This document shows, piece after piece, positions 1-13,314 of a stretch of DNA of 13,314 bases; the stretch's first letter is position 1, and every line of letters begins with the position of its first letter. Position numbers and translations under genes: made by a program. The stretch is taken from assembly GCA_018302545.1 (NCBI GenBank), contig JAGVZM010000019.1, positions 1 through 13,314 of the forward strand, read 5' to 3'. The notes below the pieces were generated by a model, which was not told the DNA's origin, made no database searches, and was given only the letters and a program-made list of their open reading frames with translations. This DNA comes from Candidatus Woesearchaeota archaeon. Lineage in GTDB: Archaea; Nanobdellota; Nanobdellia; SCGC-AAA011-G17; GW2011-AR18.

Positions 1-1
1 A

Positions 2-514
2 GTTAGGAGGGCATTAAAAGCGGGTATAAAAAAAGTAAATTTGAAAAGATATTTTAAAGATATTTTACTTAAGTCGAGAGAAAAGGTATTTATTAAATTA
101 AATGAAAATGAGATTAATGCAATAAATGATATATTTGAAAAATACTTAGGAGATCCAAAAAATTTTGAATATACTCCTTCATTAGTACATGCTGATTTAA
201 GTAAAGATCATATCTTTTACGATTATAAAATTAAAAAAATAATTGGTGTTATAGATTTTGGAGATATTCAAATTAATGACCCACTTTGGGATTTAATTTA
301 TTTAGGTAGTTTTGGTAAAGTTTTTGAGGACTATATAAATTCTAGGAAAGATTCTTATTTCATTAAAAAGAAAATTAATTTATTTCTTTTAACAAGAGCA
401 TTATATGGTCTCAAAAAGGCAATTAAAAAGAAAGATGAGAAAAAATTTGATGAGGAAAGAAAAGAGATTAATAAAAGAATAAAACAATTTTATTCAAACA
501 TATTTCATTATTAA
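2..514 (+). CDS. C-terminal part of an APH/choline-kinase-fold phosphotransferase; the 5' end lies beyond the left window edge
   Basis: The reading frame is open from base 2, with no stop before the TTG at 41 that the ORF track used as a start, so the gene is cut by the window. It contains a catalytic-loop-like HADLSKDH and a metal-binding-like VIDFGD followed by DPLWDL. This is the typical order in aminoglycoside/choline kinase-like phosphotransferases. Confidence 0.6.
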   Translation, partial: VRRALKAGIKKVNLKRYFKDILLKSREKVFIKLNENEINAINDIFEKYLGDPKNFEYTPSLVHADLSKDHIFYDYKIKKIIGVIDFGDIQINDPLWDLIYLGSFGKVFEDYINSRKDSYFIKKKINLFLLTRALYGLKKAIKKKDEKKFDEERKEINKRIKQFYSNIFHY

Positions 515-620
515 AAAAATAAGATAAATATTATTTTTAAATTATATTATTCTAATATCTATTAATTATAGTTAACTTATTTTTTACTTATCATAAATTT
601 ATGAATTCTTATTAGAAATA

Positions 621-628
621 TTTATATT
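621..628 (+). promoter_or_regulatory. TATA-like box (TTTATATT) for the VIT-family gene
   Basis: An AT octamer close to the archaeal consensus TTTAWATA lies 23 nt upstream of the ATG at 652. No Shine-Dalgarno sequence lies between them, consistent with a leaderless mRNA. Confidence 0.4.
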
Positions 629-651
629 AGTTGCTGATTATTTAATTTAAC

Positions 652-1212
652 ATGCATAACCATAAAAATAAGGTGAATTTTAGAGAATATATTCTTGGTG
701 GCCAAGATGGCTTGGTAAATGTTCTAGGAATTGTTTTAGGTGTCGCTAGTGCTACTTTAAGTACAAATATGGTTTTAATATCTGGAATTGTTGCTACTGT
801 TGCTGAGAGTATTAGTATGTCTGCTGTGGCTTATACCTCCTCTAAAGCTGCTAAAGAATATGAAAATAGTTTAATTAAAGAGGATAAAAAAGGTAGTTTA
901 AAATTTAGGGAACATAAAGCTTTACTAAAAGAGTTTAATAATCCATTAAAAAGTGCAGGAGTTGTTGGATTATCAACTTTAATAGGAAGTATTATCCCAC
1001 TAGTTCCTTTTTTCTTTTTTAGTGTCAAAATTGGAATATTATTTAGTTTAGTATTTTCTGCTACCGTATTATTCTTAGTAGGAGCTTTGAAAGCTAAATT
1101 AAGTATAGGAAACTGGAAAAAAAGCGGTTTTGAACTTATGGTAATTGGACTTTTAGCGGCAATTACTGGTTATTTAGTGGGATTATTATTGAAATTTTTT
1201 GGATTAAGTTAA
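652..1212 (+). CDS. VIT1/CCC1-family (vacuolar iron transporter-like) membrane protein
   Basis: The N-terminal motif LGGQDGLVNVLGIVLGVA and the SMSAVAYTS segment match the VIT/CCC1 signature (GxxDG...G, SMaxGeY-like). A hydrophilic loop follows, then C-terminal hydrophobic helices. The 186 aa length fits the short archaeal forms. Confidence 0.75.
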   Translation: MHNHKNKVNFREYILGGQDGLVNVLGIVLGVASATLSTNMVLISGIVATVAESISMSAVAYTSSKAAKEYENSLIKEDKKGSLKFREHKALLKEFNNPLKSAGVVGLSTLIGSIIPLVPFFFFSVKIGILFSLVFSATVLFLVGALKAKLSIGNWKKSGFELMVIGLLAAITGYLVGLLLKFFGLS

Positions 1213-1225
1213 TTAATTTCTTGCC

Positions 1226-1621
1226 TTATCTTAATATTGCCTTATTTAATTCTTCAATTTTTGAGAAATCTTCATCTTTAGTTATTAAATAAAAATTATT
1301 TTCTATAACTAAAGTTGCTATTAATAGATCTGCTAATGGGATTACAATCCCTTTTTTGTCATATTTATATTTTAGATTAGCTAAAATTTCTGCAGTTTTT
1401 TCACTTGTTTGAATTTTTGTGAACTTATTTAAAAATGATATTGTTTGTTCTTGCTTTTTTTGGACTTGTTCTTTTATTCCAACCATTAATTCAAACTCGC
1501 TGATAAAAGTTATTCTTGCGGGAGAAGGATATCTTTTTGATAATTCCTCTAATTTTTCTATAGTTTCTTCTCTTTTCCTTTCAATATCGATCAATATTGA
1601 AGTATCTAATACTAAGATCAT
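1226..1621 (-). CDS. vapC: PIN-domain ribonuclease toxin VapC
   Basis: The start MILVLDTSILID carries the first PIN acidic residue. The other conserved acidic positions are in SEFELMVG, LADLLIA and ITKDEDF. Size is 131 aa. Its ATG overlaps the upstream antitoxin stop in an ATGA junction (1618..1621). Confidence 0.85.
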   Translation of the reverse strand: MILVLDTSILIDIERKREETIEKLEELSKRYPSPARITFISEFELMVGIKEQVQKKQEQTISFLNKFTKIQTSEKTAEILANLKYKYDKKGIVIPLADLLIATLVIENNFYLITKDEDFSKIEELNKAILR

Positions 1622-1863
1622 GATCTAAAACCATACTCCTTTCTTTTTTTTCTTATTAAGTCTTCAATTTTTTCTGCTTCTTCTTCTGTAAAAATTCTTT
1701 TACCTTTAAGTATATCTTTCCAGAATATGTTTTTTCCTTTTTCATATTCTTTTAACATATTTTTTAGTAGAGTTGCTAGTTTTACATTATCTTTGGCTGC
1801 TAAACTTTTAAAGTTTGTCCAAGTCTCATCATCTATTCCTTTAATTGTTTTAACTTCTGGCAT
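1618..1863 (-). CDS. vapB: VapB-type antitoxin with a probable ribbon-helix-helix (CopG/Arc-like) DNA-binding N-terminus
   Basis: The 81 aa protein lies directly upstream of the PIN gene with a 4-nt overlap. The N-terminus shows a strand-helix-helix pattern (KTIKGIDDETWTNFKSLAAKDNVKLATLLKNMLKEY), and the C-terminus is a charged tail typical of toxin-binding regions. Confidence 0.7.
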   Translation of the reverse strand: MPEVKTIKGIDDETWTNFKSLAAKDNVKLATLLKNMLKEYEKGKNIFWKDILKGKRIFTEEEAEKIEDLIRKKRKEYGFRS

Positions 1864-1866
1864 AAA

Positions 1867-1900
1867 GTATTTAAGTATTACTTGTATTTAAGTATTACTT
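1867..1900 (-). promoter_or_regulatory. Perfect tandem 17-bp direct repeat (GTATTTAAGTATTACTT x2); putative vapBC promoter and operator
   Basis: Positions 1867-1883 and 1884-1900 are identical. Each unit contains the inverted repeat AGTA-T-TACT and, on the minus strand, CTTAAATA, which matches the archaeal TATA consensus YTTAWATA. The distal TATA copy (1885-1892) is 21 nt from the vapB ATG at 1863. Confidence 0.6.
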
Positions 1901-1965
1901 TTTGGACTTAGTTAAAATTAAATAAATTTTTAATTAAATCATAAAATTATTATTGTATTTATCCT

Positions 1966-3279
1966 CTATAATCCTAAGTTTTTCATAATCTTATCTTTGT
2001 TAAATTCTTCTAAGTCATCTAGTTCTTGTCCCACTCCCAGATACATAATTGGACGGTGAGTCACATGAGAAACAGAGACAATTGTTCCTCCTTTTTCATC
2101 TACATCTGCTTTTGTTAGTATTATTCCATCTATTCCTATTTCATTTTTGAATTGTTGCGCTTGTTCTGTACAATCATTGCCTGTAATTGCTTCTCCAATA
2201 AATATTTTTAGATCTGGTTTTGCAACTCTAATTATTTTTTGCATTTCTCCCATAAGGTTTTTATTAGAATGTAATCTTCCAGCTGTATCTATTAAAACAA
2301 CATCAATATTGTGTGCCTTTGCATATTCGATAGCATCAAAAGAAACTGCTGCTGGATCACTTCCATAATCATGAGCTATCACTTTTACATTTAATTTAGA
2401 ACCCCACTCTTTTAATTGTTGGATAGCTGCTGCTCTAAATGTGTCTGAAGCTGCTAAGACTACTGATTTTTTATTTTTTTGTAGTAGATGTGCTAATCTA
2501 GCTATTGAAGTAGTTTTTCCAGAACCGTTAATTCCTATAAAACATATAATGTAAGGCTTCTTCTCTTCTATGTTTTTTAGTAAATCTATTTTTGGAGTTA
2601 AGAATAAGTCTTCAATACTCTCTTTTAGGGAAGATATAATTGTGGCTTCTACTTCCCCTCTTTTGATTGGTTTTTCTAATATATCTTTTTTTAAATCTTC
2701 TTTTATTTTATCTACAACTTCAAAAGCTACATTATTTTCTAATAAGGCTACTTCTAAGTCTTCAAATAGTTCATTGAATTTGTCTTCTGATATTTTTGTT
2801 GTGGTTACTTTTTCTTTTATTATTCCAAAGAAGCCTTTTTTTTCTTTTGGTTCTTCTAGAATTTCTTCTTTGAATTCTTCTCTTGTATCTTCTTCTATTT
2901 TTTTAATTTTTGTATCATCTTGAACTTCTTCTAATTTTTCTTCAATTTCTTCTTTTTTAGAAATTTTTTCTTTTAATTTTGAAAAAAATCCTTTTTTTGG
3001 TTTTTCTTCTTTTTTAGAAATTGTTTCCTCTTCAATTGTTTCTTCTTGATGTGATTCTTCAATAACTTCTTCCTTTTGAGGTTTTTTTATTTTTTCTTTT
3101 TTTTGTTTAGGCTTTTTCTCTTGTTTTTTTGTTTCTTTTTTAGGCTCTCTTTTTTGGGGTTTTTTCTTCTCCTCTTTTTGAGATTCTTCTATTATATCTT
3201 CTACTTTAGGTTCTTCTTCTACTTTTTTAGAGATCTTAGATATTGTCTCTTTTATCTTATCTTTTAAAAACTTGAACAT
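1966..3279 (-). CDS. ftsY: Signal recognition particle receptor FtsY with a long Lys/Glu-rich N-terminal A-domain
   Basis: The C-terminal NG domain carries the SRP-GTPase motifs GINGSGKTT (G1), DTFRAAAIQQL, DTAGR (G3) and TKADVDEKGG (G4). The first ~160 aa are low-complexity K/E/P-rich sequence. Confidence 0.9.
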   Translation of the reverse strand: MFKFLKDKIKETISKISKKVEEEPKVEDIIEESQKEEKKKPQKREPKKETKKQEKKPKQKKEKIKKPQKEEVIEESHQEETIEEETISKKEEKPKKGFFSKLKEKISKKEEIEEKLEEVQDDTKIKKIEEDTREEFKEEILEEPKEKKGFFGIIKEKVTTTKISEDKFNELFEDLEVALLENNVAFEVVDKIKEDLKKDILEKPIKRGEVEATIISSLKESIEDLFLTPKIDLLKNIEEKKPYIICFIGINGSGKTTSIARLAHLLQKNKKSVVLAASDTFRAAAIQQLKEWGSKLNVKVIAHDYGSDPAAVSFDAIEYAKAHNIDVVLIDTAGRLHSNKNLMGEMQKIIRVAKPDLKIFIGEAITGNDCTEQAQQFKNEIGIDGIILTKADVDEKGGTIVSVSHVTHRPIMYLGVGQELDDLEEFNKDKIMKNLGL

Positions 3280-3298
3280 GTAACCTTTATTGGTAGTA

Positions 3299-3308
3299 AA
3301 TTTAAAAG
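3299..3308 (-). promoter_or_regulatory. TATA-like AT block for ftsY
   Basis: The minus strand reads CTTTTAAATT, which contains TTTAAATT. It lies 19-21 nt upstream of the ftsY ATG at 3279. This is less precise than the other promoters in the window. Confidence 0.3.
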
Positions 3309-3328
3309 GCTTTTTATTTGTAGATAGT

Positions 3329-3336
3329 TTTATATT
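3329..3336 (+). promoter_or_regulatory. TATA-like box (TTTATATT) for the FHA gene
   Basis: It lies 21 nt upstream of the ATG at 3358, in the divergent intergenic region shared with ftsY. Confidence 0.45.
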
Positions 3337-3357
3337 TTAGATAAATTCTAAGGATTT

Positions 3358-3777
3358 ATGGGTTGGAAAGATCATGTCCCTTCTTGGCTTGGTGGAAGTT
3401 CAGTTAAAAATTATACTAAGGTTAAAGTTTTTGCAAATCAAAATGGACAAGTTTTGAAATCTTGGGAATTTGAATTAAGACAAAATATAGGGAGAGATGG
3501 AGATATTGTTGGCCTAATAAGTCTTGGGAGAAGTTCTGACAATAGCTTAGTAGTACAAGGCGATGGGATATCTAGAAGACATGCAGATATTTTAGTTGTG
3601 CAAAATTCAAATAATACTATCACTTTAAATTGGAAAGATCAGAGTTCAAATGGATCTGTAATTGATGGAAATCAAGTAAAGAAAGGTCAAACATATGGAT
3701 TATGTCCAAAGAATGAGATTATTATAGGAGTTAATAAAACATTTATTATTTTTAATTTTAGTTATAAATTAGAATAG
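3358..3777 (+). CDS. Small stand-alone FHA (forkhead-associated, phosphothreonine-binding) domain protein
   Basis: The canonical FHA signature residues occur in order: GR (SLGRSSDN), SRRH (GISRRHADI), NG (SSNGSVIDGNQV), then IIIG...FIF. The protein is 139 aa with no other domain. Confidence 0.75.
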   Translation: MGWKDHVPSWLGGSSVKNYTKVKVFANQNGQVLKSWEFELRQNIGRDGDIVGLISLGRSSDNSLVVQGDGISRRHADILVVQNSNNTITLNWKDQSSNGSVIDGNQVKKGQTYGLCPKNEIIIGVNKTFIIFNFSYKLE

Positions 3778-4729
3778 ACAACTTCTTAATTAGGATTGTT
3801 GCATAAGAGCCTTTAGGAAGATAAAATTCTAATTCCAACTTAAATTTATTTATATCCTCTTCCGAATATTTTGATCTTATCTCTTTTACATTGACTAATG
3901 CATCCCTTTCCTTAGATTCTGAAACTAAATCTGGAAATTGCCTAGTAATAAAATCAGATCTAGTAATTTTTTCTTTTTCTAAAATCCTATCTAATTCTCT
4001 TTGTTTTTTTGTATCAAAGCTGACTAATGGAAGCTTAAAATTTTTTAATTTAATATTAGAAAAGTATAACTCTCCTATTGAGTAATCTTTTTTTGTAAAC
4101 TCTTTTTTTGATATTATACTTTTTAATGTTTCATTCCATAAATAGGATTGATAAGCAGAGATGTAAAATTTTAATAATTTTTTTGGTTGTTTCTGAATTT
4201 CATTAATGTAATCTTTATTAACATCTAGATCTAATAATTTGCAGGTTTCTTTAAAGTCTTTTTTTATTATTGATTTTCCTATTAAATGGGTATTATTTAA
4301 TTTTCCAAATCTTTGATCATCAAAATAATTTTCTATTTGAATATCTTTAGGAATATCAACTTTTTTGGTTAAATTTCTTACAATTATTTTGAAATTATTT
4401 CCTTTTAAATCTCCTAGATTGATTCTTTCTTTTGAATAACCTAAGAACTCTAGAGAAAAATCTTGGATTTTTATTTTATTTATTTTTTCTTTTGAAACTT
4501 TGTAAAATGAAATATATTGTGTAGTTATAGCTTGTTTATCTTTAATTCCTGCATAACCTATGAACTTAGGTTTTAGGTTTAATATTTTTGAAATCTTTTG
4601 GATTAGTTTAAAATGGTCCCATCCCTTCTTTGTTAATCTTGCTATAGAATAATCTTGTCTTTCTTTTTCTAGATTCAAGTTTAAAATTTCTTCTACAATA
4701 AAATCTTCAGGAAGGGTTTTTAGTTGCAT
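3758..4729 (-). CDS. truD: tRNA pseudouridine synthase TruD/Pus7 family
   Basis: The N-terminal LPEDFIVEEI, the catalytic-Asp motif GYAGIKDKQAITTQ and the C-terminal GSYATILIKKL are the characteristic TruD motifs. Confidence 0.8.
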   Translation of the reverse strand: MQLKTLPEDFIVEEILNLNLEKERQDYSIARLTKKGWDHFKLIQKISKILNLKPKFIGYAGIKDKQAITTQYISFYKVSKEKINKIKIQDFSLEFLGYSKERINLGDLKGNNFKIIVRNLTKKVDIPKDIQIENYFDDQRFGKLNNTHLIGKSIIKKDFKETCKLLDLDVNKDYINEIQKQPKKLLKFYISAYQSYLWNETLKSIISKKEFTKKDYSIGELYFSNIKLKNFKLPLVSFDTKKQRELDRILEKEKITRSDFITRQFPDLVSESKERDALVNVKEIRSKYSEEDINKFKLELEFYLPKGSYATILIKKLSILIYN

Positions 4730-4750
4730 TTAATTAAGACCATACAGGTA

Positions 4751-4758
4751 AATATAAA
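4751..4758 (-). promoter_or_regulatory. TATA-like box (minus strand TTTATATT) for truD
   Basis: It lies 21 nt upstream of the truD ATG at 4729. No SD sequence lies between them. Confidence 0.45.
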
Positions 4759-4811
4759 TTTTTACTTTAATCTATAGTTATTTTCCTAAATTATAACTGG
4801 ATTTGAAAAAG

Positions 4812-4819
4812 CTTAAATA
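4812..4819 (+). promoter_or_regulatory. TATA-like box (CTTAAATA) upstream of the ApgM-like gene
   Basis: It lies 21 nt upstream of the ATG at 4841. This gene also has a strong SD-like GGGAGG (4829-4834) 6 nt before the ATG. That element would only be transcribed from a more distal promoter, so the initiation mode is ambiguous here. Confidence 0.35.
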
Positions 4820-4840
4820 TCTAATGAAGGGAGGTTTTTT

Positions 4841-6088
4841 ATGGTTAATGTTTTTGTTGTTCTTAGTGGTGTTGGAGATAGGGGTTGTAAGGTTTTTAAT
4901 GGTGCTACTCCTTTAGAAGTTGCAAAAACAAAGAATTTAGATTATTTTGCTTCTAATGGAAATGGGGGATATTTCTATCCTATAAATGAGCATGTAGCTC
5001 CTGAAAATGATGAGGCAATTATGGCTTTACTGGGAACTGATCCTCAAACTCAGCATTATGGAAGAGGTGCTGTTGAAGCTTATGCAGTAGGCATTGGTTT
5101 CAAGAAAGGTTATCTTGCTTTAAGGACTAACTTTTCTACAGTAGAAAAGGAGATTGTATTGGATAAAAGAACTGGGAGAAGTTTGACTTCCAAGGAAGCT
5201 GAAGAATTTGCTAGAAGTCTTAATGAAAATATTAAATTAGAATTTCCATTTGTATTTAAACCGACATTTAGCCATAGAGGAATATTAATGTTTAAAGGAA
5301 ATTTTTCAGATAATATAACTAATGTTGATTTATCTTACAAAAAAATTGGTAAATTTGGAGTTTCTGGATATGGAGACAAAAATAAATTAAGTTCTGCTAA
5401 ACCCTTAGATCCTGAAAGCAATACAAGGAAGAGTGCTAAGATTGTTAATGATTTTGTAAAACAGTCTCAAGATATTTTAAGTAAACACCCTTTAAATGAA
5501 AAGAGGAAGAAAAATTATTTACTAGCTGCGAATGTTGTTGTTCCTAGAGATGCGGGCGTTTCTCTACCTGTCTTAAATAAGAATAAAGGATGGGGAGCAA
5601 TAGTTAGTTCTCCATTAGAAAAGGGTTTTGCTGCCTTATCTGGTATGAAAATTATAGATTATAATTATCCTGAGATTAAAAATCATGACATCTATGATAC
5701 CTTATATAAAGGAATCAAAGTTACAGTAAAACATGCTATCAAACAAATACAAGAAGGAGAGTTTAAGAATTATTTTATACACTTTAGGGAATTTGATATA
5801 GCTGGAAAGGATAATAGGCCTAAAGAGAAGGTTAAAATGATTGAGTTTTTAGATGGAACTTTATTTAAGTTTTTAAGAAAGAATAATAGGGATTTAAATT
5901 TAGTAATTACATCTGACCATAGTACCCCTTGTGATTTAAGGGCTAATGGTGTTGATCCTGTCCCTTTGATACATTTTGGTAAGGGTAAACAAGATGGGAT
6001 TCAGAGATTTACAGAACATGAGTGTTTTGAAGGACATTATAAAAAGATGTATGGTAAAGAGGTTATGCACAAAGTAGGTTTCTTATAA
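4841..6088 (+). CDS. apgM: Archaeal-type cofactor-independent phosphoglycerate mutase (ApgM) homolog, possibly catalytically degenerate
   Basis: Length and colinear motifs match ApgM and the alkaline-phosphatase superfamily: TPLEVAKTKNLDY, YGRGAVEA, LRTNFSTV, DKRTGRS, HPLNEKRKK, ANVVVPRDAG, ITSDHSTP and DPVPLI. Several expected metal or nucleophile positions are substituted (see findings). Confidence 0.7.
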   Translation: MVNVFVVLSGVGDRGCKVFNGATPLEVAKTKNLDYFASNGNGGYFYPINEHVAPENDEAIMALLGTDPQTQHYGRGAVEAYAVGIGFKKGYLALRTNFSTVEKEIVLDKRTGRSLTSKEAEEFARSLNENIKLEFPFVFKPTFSHRGILMFKGNFSDNITNVDLSYKKIGKFGVSGYGDKNKLSSAKPLDPESNTRKSAKIVNDFVKQSQDILSKHPLNEKRKKNYLLAANVVVPRDAGVSLPVLNKNKGWGAIVSSPLEKGFAALSGMKIIDYNYPEIKNHDIYDTLYKGIKVTVKHAIKQIQEGEFKNYFIHFREFDIAGKDNRPKEKVKMIEFLDGTLFKFLRKNNRDLNLVITSDHSTPCDLRANGVDPVPLIHFGKGKQDGIQRFTEHECFEGHYKKMYGKEVMHKVGFL

Positions 6089-6112
6089 TTTATTTTTGAG
6101 ATAAGATAAATA

Positions 6113-6120
6113 TTTAAATT
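6113..6120 (+). promoter_or_regulatory. TATA-like box (TTTAAATT) for the GINS gene
   Basis: It lies 22 nt upstream of the ATG at 6143, with no SD sequence. Confidence 0.45.
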
Positions 6121-6142
6121 AATTTTAATTTTTCAATTTTAT

Positions 6143-6769
6143 ATGGAAAAAGAAGGTATAATAACTTATGAAAAATTATATGAGTTTTTGAGGAATGAAA
6201 AGTATAAAAAAGAATTACAAAAGATAGATTCTGATTTTTTTGAGAGAGTTTTAAAATATTTAGATGAAAAAAAGTCTATTTTAGAAAGTCAGGAAAAAAA
6301 GGATAGTGTTTTTGCTTCTTCTAGTGTTGCGCAGACAAAAAGACAATTAGAGAATACAAGAATGATCTTAAAAGAATTATATGAAAGAAGAGAAGCTAAG
6401 ATTATACAAATGGCTTTATTTAACTCTAGAACTGGTGAAAGAATGCAAGATGTTGATTTTTTATTAGAAGAAGAGGTGATGGTCTATAATTCTTTGGTTA
6501 ATCTGTTTAATTCTTATAGAAGGGGTATTGTTGAAAATATTTTAAATGGAAATCTCCCTGATATCAGGAATATAAATGGAGTAAATAATCTAGTTGTTGA
6601 GGAAAAAGATGAAAATAGCAGTAAATTGGTTAGATTTTTACATCCAGTTCCTAAATTTGTAGGAGAGGATATGCAGACTTATGGGCCTTTTGAAACAGAA
6701 GATATAGCTAATCTACCTAAGAAAGTTAGTGAGATACTTATTAGGAATAATAGAGCAGAAGAGGCTTAG
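6143..6769 (+). CDS. gins51: GINS replication complex subunit, Gins51/Gins15 (Sld5/Psf1-like, A-B domain order)
   Basis: The helical N-terminal region has the GINS-like pattern ITYEKLYEFLRNEK...LQKIDSDFFERVLKYL and ERREAKIIQMAL. The C-terminal small beta domain is VRFLHPVPKFVGEDMQTYGPFETEDIANLPKKVSEILIRNNRAE, which resembles archaeal Gins51 B-domains. Confidence 0.65.
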   Translation: MEKEGIITYEKLYEFLRNEKYKKELQKIDSDFFERVLKYLDEKKSILESQEKKDSVFASSSVAQTKRQLENTRMILKELYERREAKIIQMALFNSRTGERMQDVDFLLEEEVMVYNSLVNLFNSYRRGIVENILNGNLPDIRNINGVNNLVVEEKDENSSKLVRFLHPVPKFVGEDMQTYGPFETEDIANLPKKVSEILIRNNRAEEA

Positions 6770-6774
6770 GAAGA

Positions 6775-6782
6775 TTTATAAA
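6775..6782 (+). promoter_or_regulatory. TATA-like box (TTTATAAA) for the L44e-S27e unit
   Basis: It lies 22 nt upstream of the ATG at 6805. This supports 6805 rather than 6820 as the L44e start. Confidence 0.45.
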
Positions 6783-6804
6783 GCGGCCAATTTTTCAGAA
6801 GTTT

Positions 6805-7119
6805 ATGAAATTGCCAAAAATGACTAAGAGATATTGTCCAAAGTGCAAGAAGTCTACAGAACAAAAAATAGACCTATATAAATCATCAGGAAAGAGGAGT
6901 TCATTATCTTTTGGTTCAATAATTAGAGCTAAAAAAAGAGGTTTAGGCACTGGAACTGGCAATTTGGGTAAATGGGGCAGTAAGCCAGCAATCTCTAAAT
7001 GGAAGAGAACGGGTGCTAAACAAAGCAAAAAATCTACTTTAAAATATACTTGTAAAGAATGTAAGAAAAGCACCCAACAAAGTGGGGGATTCAGAGCAAA
7101 AAAATTTGAGTTTAAGTAA
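6805..7119 (+). CDS. rpl44e: Ribosomal protein L44e (eL42)
   Basis: It has the zinc-ribbon cysteine pairs CPKCKK and CKECKK, a GKRSSLSFG-type segment and the C-terminal GGFRAKKFEF, all characteristic of L44e. Confidence 0.9.
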   Translation: MKLPKMTKRYCPKCKKSTEQKIDLYKSSGKRSSLSFGSIIRAKKRGLGTGTGNLGKWGSKPAISKWKRTGAKQSKKSTLKYTCKECKKSTQQSGGFRAKKFEFK

Positions 7120-7300
7120 AATAAAAAATGAATGTAAAACTAAATTTGTAAAGGTTCATTGTAATAAATGTAAGAATGAGCAAAATATTTTTAGTTGTGT
7201 TTCTAGTAAAGTTGAATGTTTGGTTTGCGGTGAACTTTTGGCTGAACCTTGTGGTGGAAGAAGTAAAATTAAAGGTAAAATTCTAGAGATATTAAACTAG
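7082..7300 (+). CDS. rps27e: Ribosomal protein S27e (eS27)
   Basis: KFVKVHCNKCKNEQNIFS...VECLVCGELLAEPCGGRSKIKGKILE is the S27e C4 zinc-ribbon core. The track start at 7082 is a GTG overlapping L44e by 38 nt. An in-frame TTG at 7106 is an alternative, so the 5' end is uncertain. Confidence 0.85.
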   Translation: MGDSEQKNLSLSKIKNECKTKFVKVHCNKCKNEQNIFSCVSSKVECLVCGELLAEPCGGRSKIKGKILEILN

Positions 7301-7308
7301 AGGCAAGT

Positions 7309-7316
7309 CTTATAAA
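7309..7316 (+). promoter_or_regulatory. TATA-like box (CTTATAAA) for the aIF2-alpha and nop10 unit
   Basis: It lies 22 nt upstream of the ATG at 7339, with no SD sequence. Confidence 0.45.
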
Positions 7317-7338
7317 TATTTACATTATCCTTTAGATT

Positions 7339-8124
7339 ATGTTTCGTAAAAAGCAAGGCAAACCTGAAATTGGAGAAGTAGTTATTTGTACAGTAAATAA
7401 AATTCTATATCACTCTGTTTTTGTTAATCTAGATGAATATGAAAAGCTGGATGGAATGGTCCATATTTCTGAAGTTTCTCCAGGTAGAATTAGGAATTTA
7501 AGAGATTTTGTTTCTGAAGGCAGAAGGATAGTATGTAAGGTTCTTAACATAAATCATCAAGGCAACATAGACTTAAGCTTGAGAAGAGTTAGCACTAATG
7601 TTAGAATAAATAAAATGCAAGAATGGAAACAAGAAGAAAAGGCAGAAAAATTATTAGAATTAATAGGAAAAGAAGTTAATATGGATTTAAATCAAATTTA
7701 TGATAATATTGGAAATAGGATATTAGAAAAATATGGGACAATATTTGAGTTTTTTCAAGCAATAGTTGAAAATGGTAAGAAAATTGTTGATGAATTAAAT
7801 CCTGATCCTAAATTAGGAGAGGTTTTATTTAAAACCGTAAAAGAGAAAATTAAACCTATTGAGGTTGAAGTTTCTGGATTTTTAAATTTAAGGAGTTATG
7901 AAGAGAAGGGAATTGAAAGTGTGAAATCAATTTTACTTAAAGCTAAAGATTATGATGTTGTTGTTAGTTATTTAGGTGCACCGAAATATAAATTAGAGGT
8001 TTTGGCTAAGGATTACAAAACTGCTGAGAAAAATTTAAACGAATTTTTAGAAGAAGCAAATAAGTTAGCAAAAACATCACATTGTGAAATAAACTTTATT
8101 AAAGATGACAAACCAGATTCTTAA
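7339..8124 (+). CDS. eif2a: Translation initiation factor aIF2 alpha subunit
   Basis: The N-terminal S1/OB domain (PEIGEVVICTV...GMVHISEVSPGRIRNLRDFVSEGRRIVCKVL) is followed by helical and alpha-beta C-terminal domains. The 261 aa size and the position next to S27e and Nop10 are typical for archaea. Confidence 0.9.
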   Translation: MFRKKQGKPEIGEVVICTVNKILYHSVFVNLDEYEKLDGMVHISEVSPGRIRNLRDFVSEGRRIVCKVLNINHQGNIDLSLRRVSTNVRINKMQEWKQEEKAEKLLELIGKEVNMDLNQIYDNIGNRILEKYGTIFEFFQAIVENGKKIVDELNPDPKLGEVLFKTVKEKIKPIEVEVSGFLNLRSYEEKGIESVKSILLKAKDYDVVVSYLGAPKYKLEVLAKDYKTAEKNLNEFLEEANKLAKTSHCEINFIKDDKPDS

Positions 8125-8269
8125 ATGTTTGAAGTGTGATAAATACACATTAGAAGAAGATTGTAGTATTTGTAGTAATAAATGTGTAAGCACTAAACCA
8201 GCTAAATTTAGGCATGATGATAAATATGGTTTTTATAGATTGTTATATAAAAAGAAGACTATGAATTAA
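8105..8269 (+). CDS. nop10: H/ACA ribonucleoprotein subunit Nop10 (54 aa; not in the supplied ORF track)
   Basis: Hand translation from the ATG at 8105 gives MTNQILKCLKCDKYTLEEDCSICSNKCVSTKPAKFRHDDKYGFYRLLYKKKTMN, with a TAA stop at 8267-8269. The protein has the archaeal Nop10 zinc ribbon (CxxC...CxxC), then P-A-K-F and DKYG.YR. It overlaps the aIF2-alpha 3' end by 20 nt. Confidence 0.85.
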   Translation: MTNQILKCLKCDKYTLEEDCSICSNKCVSTKPAKFRHDDKYGFYRLLYKKKTMN

Positions 8270-8796
8270 ATTCTTGGGTTCTCATCTATAAATCTTATTT
8301 TTCCTTCTGATATCCCAAAGTTTTCTTCTATTCTCTCTTTTAATTGGGCTATAACGGCTAACAAACTATCATTGCCAGACCTTAAAGCTTCATTAAATTT
8401 TCCTAAAGTTAGAGAACCATCTCTAAATCTTATTAAAACTTCTTTGTCTTTTACAATTATCCATCCAGGTAAAAATATTTTAACTTTAAAAAGTTCATCT
8501 TTGAAAAAACCAAAGAACTTAGATTCATAAAATGTAATGTAATAATGAAAATATATTCTATCTTTTTCTTTTCCATTTTTATCTTTTTCATGTTCTGCGA
8601 CTAAATATTCTCCTATATGTAATCTAATATTTTCCCAAAATGATGGTGCATTATGTTCTATAAATTCTTTTAAACCTTTTGATAAACTTGATAATTTTGT
8701 CATAACCTCGTTTCTTTTTAAATCTAATTTCTCTTTATCAAATTTTATATCTTTTTTGCTTATAATTGACCTATTGTATATCTCAGATTTTGGCAT
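8266..8796 (-). CDS. Hypothetical protein (176 aa), no family recognised; apparently related to the N-terminal domain of the upstream 334-aa protein
   Basis: A long ORF with an ATG start and its own TATA box at the canonical distance. The mixed alpha/beta-looking sequence is not low-complexity. I could find no catalytic or binding motif. Confidence 0.6.
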   Translation of the reverse strand: MPKSEIYNRSIISKKDIKFDKEKLDLKRNEVMTKLSSLSKGLKEFIEHNAPSFWENIRLHIGEYLVAEHEKDKNGKEKDRIYFHYYITFYESKFFGFFKDELFKVKIFLPGWIIVKDKEVLIRFRDGSLTLGKFNEALRSGNDSLLAVIAQLKERIEENFGISEGKIRFIDENPRI

Positions 8797-8818
8797 TATA
8801 TTTTATTAAATATTTAAG

Positions 8819-8826
8819 TATATAAA
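8819..8826 (-). promoter_or_regulatory. TATA-like box (minus strand TTTATATA) for the 176-aa orphan gene
   Basis: It lies 22 nt upstream of the ATG at 8796 and only 8 nt downstream of the stop of the 334-aa gene. Confidence 0.45.
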
Positions 8827-8834
8827 ATTTAGTA

Positions 8835-9839
8835 TTAATCTCTTTTTCCAGCTTTTGTTCCTTTGTCTATAGTAAAAGAAGGATCATGTTCAATTTCCCT
8901 ATTAGATACTTTTCTTCTTGCTGCACTTGCAACCATATCTTGCATAGTTAAAGGTAATTTTTCCCTGCCTTTTTTTATTTTATCATTTGGTTCAAAGATT
9001 GTTGTGTCATTTAGTATTATATTTTTTGGTTCAATATTAAATGTTTTTAAGATTGATTCTTGTAATGTACTTATTAATCCCGTATATCCTGCTTGCATTG
9101 ACTTTCCTTCAATTTTTTTAGTTGTTATTGATCCAAAACTATCTCTGGTTAAGACTTGTTTTTTTCCTGTTGTTTCCTTTAGTTTGGAAATTTTAGAATC
9201 ATATTTTGATTTTAATTTTCTAACCTCCTCTTCTAATTCATTACCTTCATAGTTTGACTTTAATTCTTTGATTTTCTTTTGATATTCTTCTTCTAATTTA
9301 TTCATATCTTTTTTTACTGCATCAAATTCTGTTTTTGATATTTTATTTGTATCTATTCTCAAACTTGGGAAGAAGAATGAGAAAAATCTTCTTATAGGTT
9401 TCATTTTAGAAGGTTCTATTCTTACAGGTTGAACAAATGAATCTTTTTTTGTGAATAGTTGTTTTTGTCTTGCTATTGTTACTAAAACTTTTGCATAAGT
9501 TACAATTACTGTTTCGTGATCTTTTGCTGTTGAATCTGGTAAATAACCTTCTGGTACAAGTATGATAGAAACCCTAAATATTGGAGTTTTTGTATCCATA
9601 ACTGCTAAGGTATAAGCTAAACAGTCTGTGTTTTCATAAGAAATAATTTGATAATTTTCTTCAAATCTAAAATTTATATTGGGAAATAGGTCCTTTCTAT
9701 TTTGTTGTAATAATCTTGTGAATGCTTGTACTGCCTCTCTTAATTTTGGAGCATCTCTTTCTAAATTTTTCTTCATTATTCGGGGATCTAGAAAATTCAA
9801 ATTTGTTATAGTTTTATCCTCATCTTCCAAATCATACAC
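8835..9839 (-). CDS. Hypothetical protein (about 334 aa) with an N-terminal globular domain, an aromatic hydrophobic patch, a central coiled coil and a C-terminal domain with a basic tail
   Basis: A long ORF with non-repetitive sequence. Heptad-like K/E-rich sequence spans aa ~168-222 (KTEFDAVKKDMNKLEEEYQKKIKELKSNYEGNELEEEVRKLKSKYDSKISKLKE). The RRFFSFFFPSL patch is at aa 150-160. The start is uncertain: GTG at 9839, TTG at 9830, or ATG at 9858 if the G4 run is miscalled. Confidence 0.6.
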   Translation of the reverse strand: MYDLEDEDKTITNLNFLDPRIMKKNLERDAPKLREAVQAFTRLLQQNRKDLFPNINFRFEENYQIISYENTDCLAYTLAVMDTKTPIFRVSIILVPEGYLPDSTAKDHETVIVTYAKVLVTIARQKQLFTKKDSFVQPVRIEPSKMKPIRRFFSFFFPSLRIDTNKISKTEFDAVKKDMNKLEEEYQKKIKELKSNYEGNELEEEVRKLKSKYDSKISKLKETTGKKQVLTRDSFGSITTKKIEGKSMQAGYTGLISTLQESILKTFNIEPKNIILNDTTIFEPNDKIKKGREKLPLTMQDMVASAARRKVSNREIEHDPSFTIDKGTKAGKRD

Positions 9840-9881
9840 CCCTTATTATAATAAACATCTAGAAAATTTTGGATTTTTTTA

Positions 9882-9889
9882 TATATAAA
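9882..9889 (-). promoter_or_regulatory. TATA-like box (minus strand TTTATATA) upstream of the 334-aa orphan gene
   Basis: It lies 23 nt upstream of a minus-strand ATG at 9858. That ATG opens only an 8-codon ORF in the current sequence, and the long ORF begins 19 nt further downstream in another frame. Confidence 0.4.
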
Positions 9890-9918
9890 ACTTATCTTTA
9901 TACTAAAATACCTTAAAG

Positions 9919-9926
9919 TTTATAAG
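9919..9926 (+). promoter_or_regulatory. TATA-like box (TTTATAAG) for the PAC2-family gene
   Basis: It lies 21 nt upstream of the ATG at 9948, with no SD sequence. Confidence 0.45.
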
Positions 9927-9947
9927 CCTTAAGATATTAAAATAAAT

Positions 9948-10718
9948 ATGGAAACTGGGTGGATGATCAAAAGATTTAGGAACGTTAATTTGAAGAGTCC
10001 AATCTTAATAGAGGGACTACCTGGAATGGGTAATGTTGGAAAAATAACTGTAGATTTTATAATAGAAAGTTTAGAGGCTACTAAAATTTTTGAGATTAGT
10101 TCATATTCTTTTCCAAATTGTGTTTTTGTTAATGATCAAAGTTTAGCAGATCTTCCTAAAGTGGAGATATATTACAAAAAGGTTAAAGGTAGAGATTTAG
10201 TATTTGTTTCTGGAGATATGCAACCTGTAGATGAAAGGGGATGCTATGAATTTTGCGATAAATTGTTAGATCTTTTTAAGAAGGATATTGAAGTTATAAC
10301 TCTTGGGGGAATTGGTTTAACAGAAATGCCAAAAAAACCAAGTTTATACTGTGTTGGAAGCGATAAAAAATATTTGAATGAATATAAATCTGAAGGTCTT
10401 AAAACTGCTGAAGGGGTAGTTGGTCCTGTAATAGGAGTTACTGGACTTCTTGTAGGATTAGCTAAACAAAGGGGGCTTAAGGGAGTTATATTATTAGTAG
10501 AGACTTTAGGAATTCCTAATTATTTAGGTATTAAGGAAGCGAGAGAATTTCTTAAATTACTAAATAAAAAATTAAATTTAAACTTAGATATAAAACAATT
10601 AAATAAGGAAGTTAAGATTATTGAAAAGGAGATTAATGATAAGATTAGTGATTTTTTAGCTAAAGAAGAGAAAAAATCTAAAGGAATTAGAAAAGAATCT
10701 GCTAATTATATTGGTTAA
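9948..10718 (+). CDS. PAC2-family protein (proteasome assembly chaperone-like, COG1938-type)
   Basis: The N-terminal motif PILIEGLPGMGNVGKITVDFII is the hallmark G-x-P-G-x-G-x-V-G of archaeal PAC2/PbaA/PbaB-like proteins. GGIG and VGPVIGVTGLL segments follow, then a charged coiled C-terminal tail. Confidence 0.75.
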   Translation: METGWMIKRFRNVNLKSPILIEGLPGMGNVGKITVDFIIESLEATKIFEISSYSFPNCVFVNDQSLADLPKVEIYYKKVKGRDLVFVSGDMQPVDERGCYEFCDKLLDLFKKDIEVITLGGIGLTEMPKKPSLYCVGSDKKYLNEYKSEGLKTAEGVVGPVIGVTGLLVGLAKQRGLKGVILLVETLGIPNYLGIKEAREFLKLLNKKLNLNLDIKQLNKEVKIIEKEINDKISDFLAKEEKKSKGIRKESANYIG

Positions 10719-11591
10719 TTATTCTAATTTCTTTAAGGCTGCTTTGTCTTCTATAAATTCTGTTGGGCAAAATTGTTCAAAATAGGGAATTGAAAATAAC
10801 ATAGCCCATTTTTCAGTTAAGTAATGTGAACAACCTATAATATTAATTCCTTCTATTTTTTTAACTTCTTCTAATGTTTTAGGATAATTTTGTTTACTAT
10901 ACTCAGAAGCATTAGGAGTTATAATTCCTGTAATATAAGTAGTGCATCCTTTATCTCTTGCTTCTTGAATTATTTCGGGTACAAATCCTCCACCAGTAAC
11001 AACAGCTACTTTTCCAACTTCGTCATTAGATTTCATAGTTTTTACTTTATAATCAAGTAACTTACTAAGTCTTTTACATAAAGAATCAAAGTCTTTGTCT
11101 TTTAATTCTCCAATTAGTCCTAAAATTAATTTTGGATTTCTAGGACCTTCTGGAGCAAATTCTTCTTTAACCTTTAAGCCAATAGTTCGTGCAAAACCAT
11201 AAGCAGTACTTACAATTTTATTATTTCTATTTCTATCCATTGGAGTATGTAATGAATAAACTGATATTCGCATTTCTTCCATAATTTTATAATCTTTTTC
11301 AGAGATATGAATAAAACCTTGACCTTTTTTACTTCCATCCCAATCAAAAGGATGTTTAATACCTCTTCTCTTAATTTCTTGAAGAAGATATGTATTTGGT
11401 GCAAAAGCAGTATATATTTTTCTTACTTCATCTGAATTTTTGAACATTAATCCTGTGTGACGTAATTTTCTTCTAAAGGAAGGTATTGATTTATTCATAA
11501 AAAGATCATCAAACATCCAAGACCAATCATCTTTAACATTTGAAACGTCAAAATCTTCTAGTAATCTTACTAAAACTGATTTCAAATCCAT
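10719..11591 (-). CDS. NIF3-family (DUF34, dinuclear metal centre) protein, divergent
   Basis: Colinear NIF3-like motifs are present: GLMF...VRKIY, KHP in place of the usual HHP, YSLHTPMD (compare HTNLD), KVAVVTGGG...EARDKGCTTYITG and GCSHYLTEKW (compare GHYxTE). The N-terminal half carries insertions. Confidence 0.6.
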   Translation of the reverse strand: MDLKSVLVRLLEDFDVSNVKDDWSWMFDDLFMNKSIPSFRRKLRHTGLMFKNSDEVRKIYTAFAPNTYLLQEIKRRGIKHPFDWDGSKKGQGFIHISEKDYKIMEEMRISVYSLHTPMDRNRNNKIVSTAYGFARTIGLKVKEEFAPEGPRNPKLILGLIGELKDKDFDSLCKRLSKLLDYKVKTMKSNDEVGKVAVVTGGGFVPEIIQEARDKGCTTYITGIITPNASEYSKQNYPKTLEEVKKIEGINIIGCSHYLTEKWAMLFSIPYFEQFCPTEFIEDKAALKKLE

Positions 11592-11612
11592 AAATTTAAA
11601 ATTATTTTTAGA

Positions 11613-11620
11613 TATATAAG
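11613..11620 (-). promoter_or_regulatory. TATA-like box (minus strand CTTATATA) for the NIF3-like gene
   Basis: It lies 21 nt upstream of the ATG at 11591, within the 38-nt gap after the endonuclease Q stop. Confidence 0.45.
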
Positions 11621-11629
11621 TTTTATTCT

Positions 11630-12865
11630 TTAGAAATCAGTTAAGGATTTCTGTAGTTTTTCATCTATTTTTAGATCACCTAAGATTAGTTCTCCGTAAA
11701 CTCCATCATGACCTGGTTTTATTTTTAGTTTATTTTCTCTATTTAAAATTATTATTTTTGCTAGTTTTGGATGTACAATTTTATTTAATTTTTCTTCTGG
11801 AACATTTAATAATATATTGTATTCATTTTCAAAATTTTTTATTAAGTGATTATATAACTCTTGTATTTTCTTAGATGTGAAAGATTTTATTCCATAAGAA
11901 GCAGTTAATAATTCATGCAGAGGCAATACTTTTCTAGAATATTGTAAATTTTTTGGTTCTTTTCTATCTGCTAATTCTTCAATCCTATATTCTACCCCTA
12001 TTGTTAATTGTTTATTGCATTTTGGGCAAATTCCTTTTAATTTTTTAGTTTCTTGATAGTTTAAAGAGATATTACAATTTCTGTGCCCATCTACATGATA
12101 TTTTCCATATTCTGGGTTTGCTTCTATTGTTCCTTTTAATCCATCTCTTGTTCTAATTGCTTTTATTATATTTTTGTAAGTTAGTTTATTAAAATCAAAT
12201 ATTGTTGCTTCTCTTCCTAATCTTGATGGGTGTGAAGAATGTGGATCTGAAAATGAAACTAAATTGTATCTATCTAATTTTGATATTCTTCTGTTCATCT
12301 CTATATCACTAGAGATTCCTGTTTCTATTGCATGAATATATTTACTTTTTTCTTCAAAACATTCTTCAACAGAATCAAAGCCTGATTTGGATCCTAGTAT
12401 GCCAAAGAAGGAAGTCCATGCATGAGCGGGAATTACTTCTATATCTTCAGATATTGATCTTAATATATCTATAAACTCAATTGAACTCCATCCGAAAATA
12501 GGACGCCCATCATAATCTATTCTTCCTTTTTTTAATAAAACTTGTATAAATTGGTCAACTACTTCTTTGTTAGGTAATAAAACCACATGATGAATTCTTC
12601 TTCCCTTTCCCCCTTGAGAATACATTAAAGAAATCTCTGTAGTCCATATAAAAGGAAATTTGTTTTTTGTCCATAATATTCCAGATTCATCTTCAGTTAA
12701 TTTTGAAGTGATTTCTTTATTCCATAATGGATGTTGAGCATCTCCTGTTCCTAAAACATTCAAACCTTTTACTCTTGCATTTCTTTCTAAATCTTCAATT
12801 GTAGTTGTTTTAGAACATGCTTGTGCATAACGACCATGGATATGAAAATCCCCTATAAGTTCCAT
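11630..12865 (-). CDS. endoQ: Endonuclease Q (PHP-domain endonuclease acting at deaminated or abasic sites)
   Basis: The N-terminal PHP motif GDFHIHGRYAQACSK is followed by GTGDAQHP, RIHHVVL, IPAHAWTSFFG, SFSDPHS...LGRE, GKYHVDGHRNC plus the CPKCNKQLTIGVEYRIEELAD zinc-finger region. The C-terminus is GHDGVYGEL...QKSLTDF. This order and size (411 aa) match what I remember of Pyrococcus-type EndoQ. Confidence 0.75.
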   Translation of the reverse strand: MELIGDFHIHGRYAQACSKTTTIEDLERNARVKGLNVLGTGDAQHPLWNKEITSKLTEDESGILWTKNKFPFIWTTEISLMYSQGGKGRRIHHVVLLPNKEVVDQFIQVLLKKGRIDYDGRPIFGWSSIEFIDILRSISEDIEVIPAHAWTSFFGILGSKSGFDSVEECFEEKSKYIHAIETGISSDIEMNRRISKLDRYNLVSFSDPHSSHPSRLGREATIFDFNKLTYKNIIKAIRTRDGLKGTIEANPEYGKYHVDGHRNCNISLNYQETKKLKGICPKCNKQLTIGVEYRIEELADRKEPKNLQYSRKVLPLHELLTASYGIKSFTSKKIQELYNHLIKNFENEYNILLNVPEEKLNKIVHPKLAKIIILNRENKLKIKPGHDGVYGELILGDLKIDEKLQKSLTDF

Positions 12866-13299
12866 TATTTTAACACCTTTATCAAATCTATCATTCTATC
12901 TTCATAATTATATTTTTTATAAAGATTATAAGCGATTTTATTATAAGCCATTACTTCAATTTTGATTACATTACATTTTTCTTTTATTAAATAATCTTCT
13001 ATTTTCTTCATTAAAATATTAGATAATCCTTTACCTCTATATTCTGGGAAGATAACTAATTCTAGGATACGGCCTATTCTTGTTTTTATACAATCTAATT
13101 CTTGATTTTTTGTTGTATTTTTGATATTTCCTGCAACACAGCCTACAAATTTATTTTTATCAAATGCCAAATAAATAATTCCTTTATTTTTATTAACCTC
13201 TTTAAGTAAATTTAAAACATAATTTTTACCATATTCTGGTTTTCTAATCTCTCTTTTTAATGGATCTATTTTTACAAGGTAATCTTGTAGTTCTTCCAT
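12865..13299 (-). CDS. GNAT-family N-acetyltransferase
   Basis: The acetyl-CoA binding motif A (ILELVIFPEYRGKGLSNILMKKIEDY, i.e. R-G-x-G-x-[SA]) is present, and the 144 aa size is typical. Its TAA stop shares one base with the EndoQ ATG (TAATG at 12863-12867). Confidence 0.8.
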   Translation of the reverse strand: MEELQDYLVKIDPLKREIRKPEYGKNYVLNLLKEVNKNKGIIYLAFDKNKFVGCVAGNIKNTTKNQELDCIKTRIGRILELVIFPEYRGKGLSNILMKKIEDYLIKEKCNVIKIEVMAYNKIAYNLYKKYNYEDRMIDLIKVLK

Positions 13300-13314
13300 A
13301 CATTTAATTAAATC

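Follow-up and report, generated by a model that had tools for sequence, protein, structure and literature searches.

What are two opposite-strand genes, neither of which resembles any catalogued family, doing in the middle of a conserved archaeal gene string? The question is raised by contig JAGVZM010000019.1 of a Candidatus Woesearchaeota archaeon (assembly GCA_018302545.1), positions 1 to 13,314 of which were analysed at full length and are called the window below; in it, two minus-strand open reading frames (ORFs), here orfA and orfB, separate nop10 from a gene of the PAC2 family. An earlier note, written from the letters of this DNA, had taken them for an orphan two-protein module interrupting a conserved block. 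The answer in which we place slightly over half of our confidence is a different one: the genes seem to belong to a clade-restricted family of paralogues tied to the slot between nop10 and PAC2, which would have been gained once, duplicated and differentially lost, and which would encode a soluble, non-enzymatic accessory protein. The slot genes considered are orfA, orfB, P0003, L011x and L009x, all lying between nop10 and PAC2, and the L-numbers denote the compared loci.

The ORF map of the window, together with Pfam, gives the order Gins51-L44e-S27e-aIF2-alpha-Nop10 on the plus strand, orfB and orfA on the minus strand, and PAC2 on the plus strand again, with nop10 and PAC2 lying 1.68 kb apart and the two opposite-strand genes held between them:

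8105 to 8269, plus strand: nop10, final gene of the L44e-S27e-aIF2alpha-Nop10 string and left border of the slot (PF04135, E 1e-13)
8266 to 8269, 4-nt overlap: TTAA common to the convergent nop10 and orfB stop codons (sequence)
8266 to 8796, minus strand: orfB, 176 aa, ATG start, J4216_05190, orfB-type member (ORF, homology to P0003)
8835 to 9839, minus strand: orfA, 334 aa from the GTG at 9839, J4216_05195, orfA-type paralogue (ORF, homology to its relatives)
9948 to 10718, plus strand: PAC2-family gene, right border of the slot (PF09754, E 5e-35)

The four-nucleotide stop overlap and the 108-nt spacer between orfA and PAC2 (9840-9947) had been read correctly in the earlier note, as had the lack of a recognisable family, since neither orfA nor orfB has a match in Pfam, NCBIfam, PHROGs, PADLOC or PDB sequences. 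The two lie in tandem on the same strand, 38 nt apart, and the NCBI annotation calls both “hypothetical protein” (orfA being 331 aa there, consistent with an in-frame TTG at 9830). They are genuine, native-looking protein genes: none of 1000 shuffles of the region contains a stop-free run as long as the 334-aa ORF of orfA (the longest reached 216), the codon positions of both genes follow GC1>GC2>GC3 with purine-rich first positions, their synonymous codon usage is as typical of the remaining window as that of any other gene, and their GC content (25-28%) is that of the flanks.

Relatives proved scarce, and those that were found stand in the same place. Word-indexed searches of 5.8 billion clusters with orfA and orfB as queries returned self matches only, and such a search with the family alignment added P0003 and nothing else. 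A profile built from orfB and its two aligning orfA segments, searched exhaustively with HMMER against 1.84 billion representatives, retrieved P0003 (163 aa) at E 9e-11, which is 34% identical to orfB (BLASTP E 1e-25) and is encoded on a 2.2-kb contig (L002, GCA_964482175.1) by a single opposite-strand gene between nop10 and PAC2. Another candidate from that search, P0004 (1974 aa, E 7.5e-8), was rejected, as it consists of many ~80-aa tandem repeats of which seven weak matches had been summed. At L011 and L010, which share the same sequence and have the PAC2 most similar to that of the window (69%), the slot holds a 240-aa minus-strand ORF, L011x, and at L009 it holds one of 214 aa, L009x; family searches with P0003, L011x and L009x likewise gave nothing above threshold. 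All five slot genes keep both the position and the opposite strand, and the 3' junctions with the nop10 stop are tight throughout (a 5-nt gap in L002, an overlap in L011, ~3 nt in L009). Homology was established for orfA, orfB, P0003 and L011x but not for L009x, which by eye resembles the family (N-terminal “LVKLSNLTKDF”, C-terminal “LAKEFSIGKKYIRL”) without significance (hhalign P 0.012 and 0.099 only, and below significance in the profile tests too), and which was therefore set aside as a positional analogue. Strict orphan status is thus lost, given the homologues in two further lineages of Woesearchaeota, on L002 and L011/L010: orfA and orfB represent one undescribed, fast-diverging family that is, as far as detected, confined to a small clade of Woesearchaeota.

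How the two window genes relate to each other is a subtler matter. A direct BLASTP comparison of orfA and orfB yields two collinear segments at E 0.014 and 0.24, with shuffle p values of 0.0005 and 0.03 for segments that were picked after seeing the BLASTP result. P0003 matches orfA at E 2e-4 to 8e-4, and L011x does so at E 6e-5. In leave-out profile tests, the target of which was the 4436 stop-to-stop ORFs from all loci, the profile hidden Markov model (HMM) of orfA and L011x placed P0003 on top (E 4e-5, next best 0.19), that of orfB, P0003 and L011x placed orfA on top (E 1.3e-4, next best 0.37), and that of orfB, P0003 and the orfA segments placed L011x on top (E 6e-6, next best 0.65). The AlphaFold2 (AF2) models of orfA and orfB, moreover, share the same order of elements, i.e., a long helix, a short helix, three long strands, a short strand, helices and a terminal strand. 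Judged by these comparisons, orfA and orfB are distant paralogues of one family, and the “two-protein module” of the earlier note dissolves into two versions of one protein, of which the relatives carry one copy. In the slot, the pair does not co-occur across relatives either, being found together only in the window population, with one copy in L002 and in L011/L010 and none in L001, L008 and L012.

The border that these genes occupy is otherwise a narrow one. A scan of metagenomes with a PAC2 alignment returned 80 loci. In total, 73 loci hold both genes, and in these nop10 and PAC2 are always on one strand, with aIF2alpha preceding nop10 wherever it was detected; the gap between them is below 100 nt in 59 of the 73, 100-300 nt in 8 and at least 300 nt in 6 (the window included). 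L001, the one relative found among species-representative genomes (aIF2-alpha 65% identical), has a gap of 24 nt. Adjacency of nop10 and PAC2 is the norm in related loci, which bears out one half of the claim that the pair interrupts a conserved block; the other half, a break in a functional block, loses ground because PAC2 has a promoter box of its own, as the following elements show:

8819 to 8827, minus strand: TTTTATATA, TATA-like box of orfB, ending 22 nt before the ATG and lying 8 nt past the orfA stop (sequence)
9837 to 9842, minus strand: GGGGTG, a Shine-Dalgarno-like run overlapping the orfA GTG (sequence)
9882 to 9890, minus strand: TTTTATATA, TATA-like box of orfA, 42 nt upstream of the GTG (sequence)
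9915 to 9925, plus strand: AAAGTTTATAA, promoter box of PAC2, ending 22 nt before the ATG and standing back-to-back with the orfA box (sequence)

That each of the two genes has its own TATA-like box had been noticed before and was seen again here. A PAC2 box of the AAAGTTTATAA type is present ~22-24 nt before the ATG in all eight loci examined, carriers and non-carriers of slot genes alike, and in the non-carrier L001 it (at about 10918-10928) overlaps the last codons and the stop of nop10. Because the box is conserved even where PAC2 abuts nop10, PAC2 seems to be a separate transcription unit (the promoter being predicted from the sequence), and an insert in front of a separately promoted gene would sit at a unit boundary and break no operon. 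With the exception of orfA, the slot genes (orfB, P0003, L011x and L009x, four of the five) have a box of the (C/T)TTTATATA type that ends 22-24 nt before the ATG, a spacing that would fit leaderless archaeal mRNAs, and the divergent region between slot gene and PAC2 measures 75-108 nt across the carriers. The orfB box lies in the 38-nt spacer between orfA and orfB and does not face PAC2.

Elsewhere, the same junction has taken up quite different genes: a plus-strand alpha/beta hydrolase in L018 (1902-2696; Hydrolase_4, E 2e-23), a conserved plus-strand protein of 63-65 aa in L057 (2075-2266), L058 and L066 (957-1154), which is 51% identical between L057 and L066, and a plus-strand 94-aa ORF in L041 (798-1082). 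These unrelated inserts make the nop10|PAC2 junction a recurrent site of gene gain.

As for history, the slot is 2-60 nt long in most relatives, which may be taken as the ancestral spacer, and a spacer that short means that the DNA would have been imported and not evolved in situ. We infer that a single acquisition brought it to the point where the string ending in nop10 meets PAC2 with its own promoter, that an early tandem duplication placed an orfA-type copy beside PAC2 and an orfB-type copy beside nop10, and that vertical inheritance with differential loss then left both copies in the window, an orfB-type copy in L002, an orfA-type copy in L011/L010 and none in L001, L008 and L012. The order of these steps is suggested by the fact that the distance between orfA and orfB is larger than that of orfA from L011x and far larger than that of orfB from P0003, so that the duplication would predate the split of the lineages and the single-copy states would stem from differential loss; L002 kept the copy adjoining nop10 and L011 the copy adjoining PAC2. 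In a neighbour-joining tree of PAC2, aIF2alpha and Nop10, all carriers and the non-carriers L001, L008 and L012 fall into one weakly supported clade (51%), within which those non-carriers group together (73%), a topology that would fit a single gain with no more than one loss.

Divergence of the slot gene is much faster than that of its neighbours: between the window and L002 it is down to 34% identity while PAC2 stands at 64%, and the PAC2 proteins of the carrier lineages are 63-69% identical to that of the window. Within the population, L003 and L004 are identical to the window across orfA and orfB, and L005 (Logan, SRR2090155), which covers part of orfA, differs from the window at three single-nucleotide polymorphisms (SNPs) in 2 kb. 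All three lie within 80 nt of orfA, in its C-terminal unit, and are nonsynonymous (window positions 9038, 9067 and 9114, i.e., orfA residues 268, 258 and 242, N>D, T>K and K>N); the cluster may reflect diversifying selection or a recombination tract, the sites being too few for a test.

It is from this history that the strongest competing explanation draws, according to which orfA and orfB are domesticated or decaying viral or mobile cargo without a host function, tolerated at a permissive boundary. The short slot of most relatives requires that the DNA came from elsewhere, the distribution of the family is patchy, the junction has captured unrelated genes (L018, L057/L058/L066 and L041), divergence is fast, and every one of the orfA strain SNPs changes an amino acid. 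No relative turned up, however, in IMG/VR scans, GenBank phages, PHROGs or BFVD; the region holds no integrase or transposase, no tRNA that could have served as a target and no Rfam family; a search for flanking repeats gave chance-level AT-rich matches only; and the composition is fully native. Furthermore, at least three lineages, with PAC2 proteins only 63-69% identical to that of the window, retain the ORFs intact and with their promoter boxes, which argues for purifying selection on some function. We thus regard the cargo explanation as rather unlikely, if the least unlikely of those competing with the slot-family account. Native codon usage, together with nothing mobile or viral being detectable, points to an old gain, and the earlier view of a fixed, lineage-specific element, as opposed to a fresh mobile insertion, has held up, since the codons and GC are native, repeats and viral relatives are lacking, and slot and strand are kept elsewhere. 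The insert is lineage-specific, old and tightly integrated, and the small new family is an ordinary one, its genes being fast-evolving and restricted to a narrow taxonomic range.

What kind of protein it encodes can be sketched from alignments and from single-sequence AF2 models, the predicted local distance difference test (pLDDT) values of which are 57 for orfB and 46 for orfA. The model of orfB has a long N-terminal helix, three long beta strands and a C-terminal unit of strand or hairpin, helix and strand, and orfA is divided as follows:

9435 to 9839, minus strand: orfA residues 1-135, family-shared N-terminal domain, helix and beta meander, with the motif LDP...FPNI (alignments; hhalign P 0.008 against orfB and P0003)
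9165 to 9434, minus strand: orfA residues 136-225, lineage-specific insert (alignments)
8970 to 9164, minus strand: orfA residues 226-290, C-terminal hairpin-helix-strand unit common with orfB residues 116-176 (BLASTP E 0.014, shuffle p 0.0005)
8838 to 8969, minus strand: orfA residues 291-334, basic, probably disordered tail (pI 9.8, pLDDT <50)

The orfA insert is without counterpart in orfB or P0003 and is partly aligned in L011x. A helical hairpin or coiled coil rich in lysine and glutamate (K/E) is predicted at about orfA residues 169-232 (nt 9144-9335), slightly overrunning the insert, and residues 171-220, with pLDDT 77-88, are the sole well-predicted part of the orfA model. Phage scaffolding and coiled-coil proteins (PF06810, phrog_206) gave weak matches at orfA residues 164-239 (E 0.01-0.05); the likeness to Phage_scaffold was discarded as compositional only, being confined to the K/E-rich insert, reaching 16 bits against a cutoff of 35 and recurring in none of the other members.

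By hydropathy the slot proteins are soluble (maximum Kyte-Doolittle 19-residue window at most 1.25), with no signal peptide or membrane segment found in them; they contain no or almost no cysteine, their conserved positions are mostly hydrophobic, and their alignment shows no conserved residues of a catalytic type. Their isoelectric point (pI) is 9.0-9.5 in four of the five. Taken together, hydrophobic conservation and the lack of cysteines, catalytic-type residues and signal or membrane segments point to a binding or oligomerising accessory protein. With low confidence, then, the slot protein may be pictured as a soluble, non-enzymatic alpha/beta protein in which an amphipathic N-terminal helix would pack on a meander of three beta strands and a small hairpin-helix-strand unit would come next. 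To this plan orfA would have added a helical hairpin or coiled coil; orfA-orfB hetero-oligomers would be possible where both are present. Such a protein is probably dispensable, as sister lineages do without it.

Several points weigh against the account of a slot family of accessory proteins as just set out. The direct link between orfA and orfB is weak (BLASTP E 0.014-0.08), a comparison of the two sub-alignments with hhalign has P 0.008, yet a probability of only 5%, and an HMM of orfB and P0003 alone finds neither orfA nor L011x (nor L009x), so that paralogy depends on links that are transitive and were drawn in a small search space. The species tree, with bootstraps of 50-73%, is poorly resolved, and one gain followed by one loss is not distinguished from a gain within a subclade. 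The structural description of orfA and orfB rests on low-confidence single-sequence models, and the “non-enzymatic adaptor”, a predicted function, is an argument from absence. The basic pI of 9-9.5, finally, is probably typical of such an AT-rich genome and says little.

The C-terminal unit also invites a bolder functional proposal, in which the slot protein is a proteasome-linked adaptor of the ubiquitin-like (beta-grasp) kind, co-regulated with PAC2 through the bidirectional promoter region and acting in proteasome assembly or substrate delivery. By eye, the unit recalls ubiquitin-like beta-grasp proteins (PF00240; small archaeal modifier proteins, SAMPs; ubiquitin-like domains, UBLs), resembling beta1-beta2-alpha1-beta3 with an “F-x-I-x(4)-I-x-hydrophobic” strand. 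Sub-threshold PF00240 matches to the alpha1-beta3 part were obtained with P0003 (E 0.018 full-length, 0.0033 for the C-terminal fragment) and with an orfB fragment (0.17), a faint match to E1_UFD (ubiquitin fold domain) was seen in the C-terminal region of orfA (E 0.19), and the divergent arrangement with PAC2 is constant in all carriers. The best PF00240 match, however, reaches 17.6 bits against a gathering threshold of 25.4 and covers ~26 of 72 profile positions (18-44), and members of the orfA type show no ubiquitin match. A profile of the C-terminal domain searched against PDB sequences is topped by designed helical proteins, with a ubiquilin UBL at E 1.2 only, and Foldseek with the orfB model retrieved no beta-grasp protein. 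The AF2 C-terminus reads strand-helix-helix-strand in a low-confidence model, where the beta-grasp order is beta1-beta2-alpha1-beta3-beta4-beta5, and proteins of the orfB type end right after the beta3-equivalent strand, which makes a complete beta-grasp in the C-terminal unit alone impossible. No C-terminal GG is found in orfB, P0003, orfA or L011x (which end in ...ENPRI, ...VIYQR, ...AGKRD and ...YRAKF, respectively), and the non-carriers have the same PAC2 promoter. The adaptor proposal is judged improbable.

An equally slim chance is given to an accessory factor of RNA or ribonucleoprotein (RNP) metabolism tied to L44e-S27e-aIF2alpha-Nop10, for instance a small basic RNA-binding protein of ribosome or H/ACA RNP biogenesis. 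The slot gene does adjoin nop10, its stop codon overlapping that of nop10 or lying only a few nucleotides from it in every carrier, and four of the five slot proteins are basic; yet the slot gene, standing on the opposite strand with its own promoter box, is not co-transcribed with the string, Pfam and NCBIfam scans detected no RNA-binding domain, and the basicity is probably a background property of AT-rich genomes. The slot gene is, moreover, missing in sister lineages with identical flanking genes, and the unrelated genes found in the slot elsewhere imply that the position carries little functional information.

Slightly less probable still is an obligate two-protein module, that is, distinct proteins which work only together, be it as toxin and antitoxin, defence pair or heterodimeric machine. 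It can call on the same-strand tandem with its 38-nt spacing and on the retention of both genes, identical or near-identical, in three independent assemblies (L003-L005, with orfA partial in L005), but L002 has only an orfB-type gene and L011/L010 only an orfA-type gene in the slot, orfA and orfB are paralogues and not two distinct components, each has its own TATA-like box, and none of the five slot proteins matches a defence, toxin or antitoxin family in PADLOC, Pfam or NCBIfam. Most far-reaching, and a long shot in our estimation, is the idea that the slot family is a clade-specific partner of PAC2, i.e., a divergent ubiquitin-like adaptor and new proteasome accessory factor, which would be expressed from a promoter standing back-to-back with that of PAC2 and in which orfA and orfB would form a hetero-oligomer via their N-terminal helices and the orfA coiled coil. 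That the ORFs are no genes at all but chance antisense runs in a non-coding spacer, for which the lack of family matches and a 176-aa stop-free run within reach of the shuffles (maximum 216) might speak, is refuted for practical purposes by orfA outlasting 1000 of 1000 shuffles, by gene-like codon composition, by a 34%-identity homologue in the same slot and by conserved promoter boxes, leaving it a negligible probability.

The genes upstream of nop10 complete the string on the plus strand:

6143 to 6769, plus strand: Gins51 (Pfam)
6805 to 7119, plus strand: L44e (Pfam)
7082 to 7300, plus strand: S27e (by eye and from its L001 counterpart only)
7339 to 8124, plus strand: aIF2-alpha (Pfam)

The mechanical S27e ORF (72 aa) begins at a GTG and overlaps the 3' end of L44e by 38 nt; since its L001 orthologue begins at an ATG and has 61 aa, the start actually used in the window is probably located further downstream. 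The contention that every other gene of the window is assignable holds for most of those scanned, Pfam leaving without a family only the 81-aa partner of a PIN gene and a 411-aa gene (11630-12865), the sole match of which is a precomputed PF27218 (MJ0043_C). In the region 1226-1863 (minus strand), a PIN-domain (VapC-like) gene has a 4-nt overlap with the upstream 81-aa ORF, an arrangement that resembles a typical toxin-antitoxin one, and the homologue of FtsY/the signal recognition particle receptor (1966-3279, minus strand) bears an N-terminal extension of ~150 aa that is very K/E-rich and of low complexity. In the window, a NIF3/DUF34 gene (10719-11591) separates PAC2 from the 411-aa MJ0043_C/PHP-like gene; it is missing from that position in L001 (11726-11858), where PAC2 and the MJ0043_C/PHP-like gene are 131 nt apart, a second lineage-specific difference right beside the orfA/orfB insert. 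L003 and L004 (ENA assemblies of the same population) carry 21 extra in-frame nt in NIF3 at ~11357 (297 aa against 290 aa in the window) and are otherwise 100% identical to the window over ~6.1 kb.

Returning to the slot family, what is gained is that two “hypothetical proteins” become a small defined family that has paralogues, a conserved slot, a common layout of its promoters and a history that can plausibly be told as gain, duplication and differential loss; it offers a manageable example of how young or fast-evolving genes evolve in DPANN archaea. On present evidence it reveals no new mechanism or system, and only the weak ubiquitin-like/PAC2 lead, should it be confirmed, would yield a functional insight. 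The locus also exposes a permissive seam in a gene string that ranks among the best conserved in archaea, Gins-L44e-S27e-aIF2alpha-Nop10-PAC2, located between nop10 and PAC2, where PAC2 has its own promoter box and where at least four unrelated lineage-specific inserts have accumulated.

Among known systems, a close frame is the “LSIN” cluster (L44E-S27E-aIF2alpha-Nop10), which Berthon et al. 2008 (PMC2643942) described as linked to Gins15 and, in Euryarchaea, as almost always followed after nop10 by a gene of the ATP-grasp superfamily. The window keeps the order and orientation Gins51-L44e-S27e-aIF2alpha-Nop10, a PAC2-family gene following downstream on that strand, and departs from the cluster by the 1.68 kb with two opposite-strand genes between nop10 and PAC2; the earlier note had described this string and a follower too, naming the follower as COG1938 where the paper cites COG2047. 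The likeness to ubiquitin-like domains (those of proteasome shuttle factors included) lies in the C-terminal unit, the sub-threshold PF00240 matches and a proteasome-related neighbour, the difference in scores below threshold, the partial fold of the orfB-type proteins and the lack of a diglycine; it is a lead and not a membership. The slot family also resembles lineage-specific gene families of DPANN archaea, with which it has in common the absence of family matches, a narrow and patchy distribution, fast divergence, tandem duplication and annotation as hypothetical, whereas it differs from a singleton ORFan in comprising four proteins and one analogue that share a fixed slot and strand and a conserved promoter geometry.

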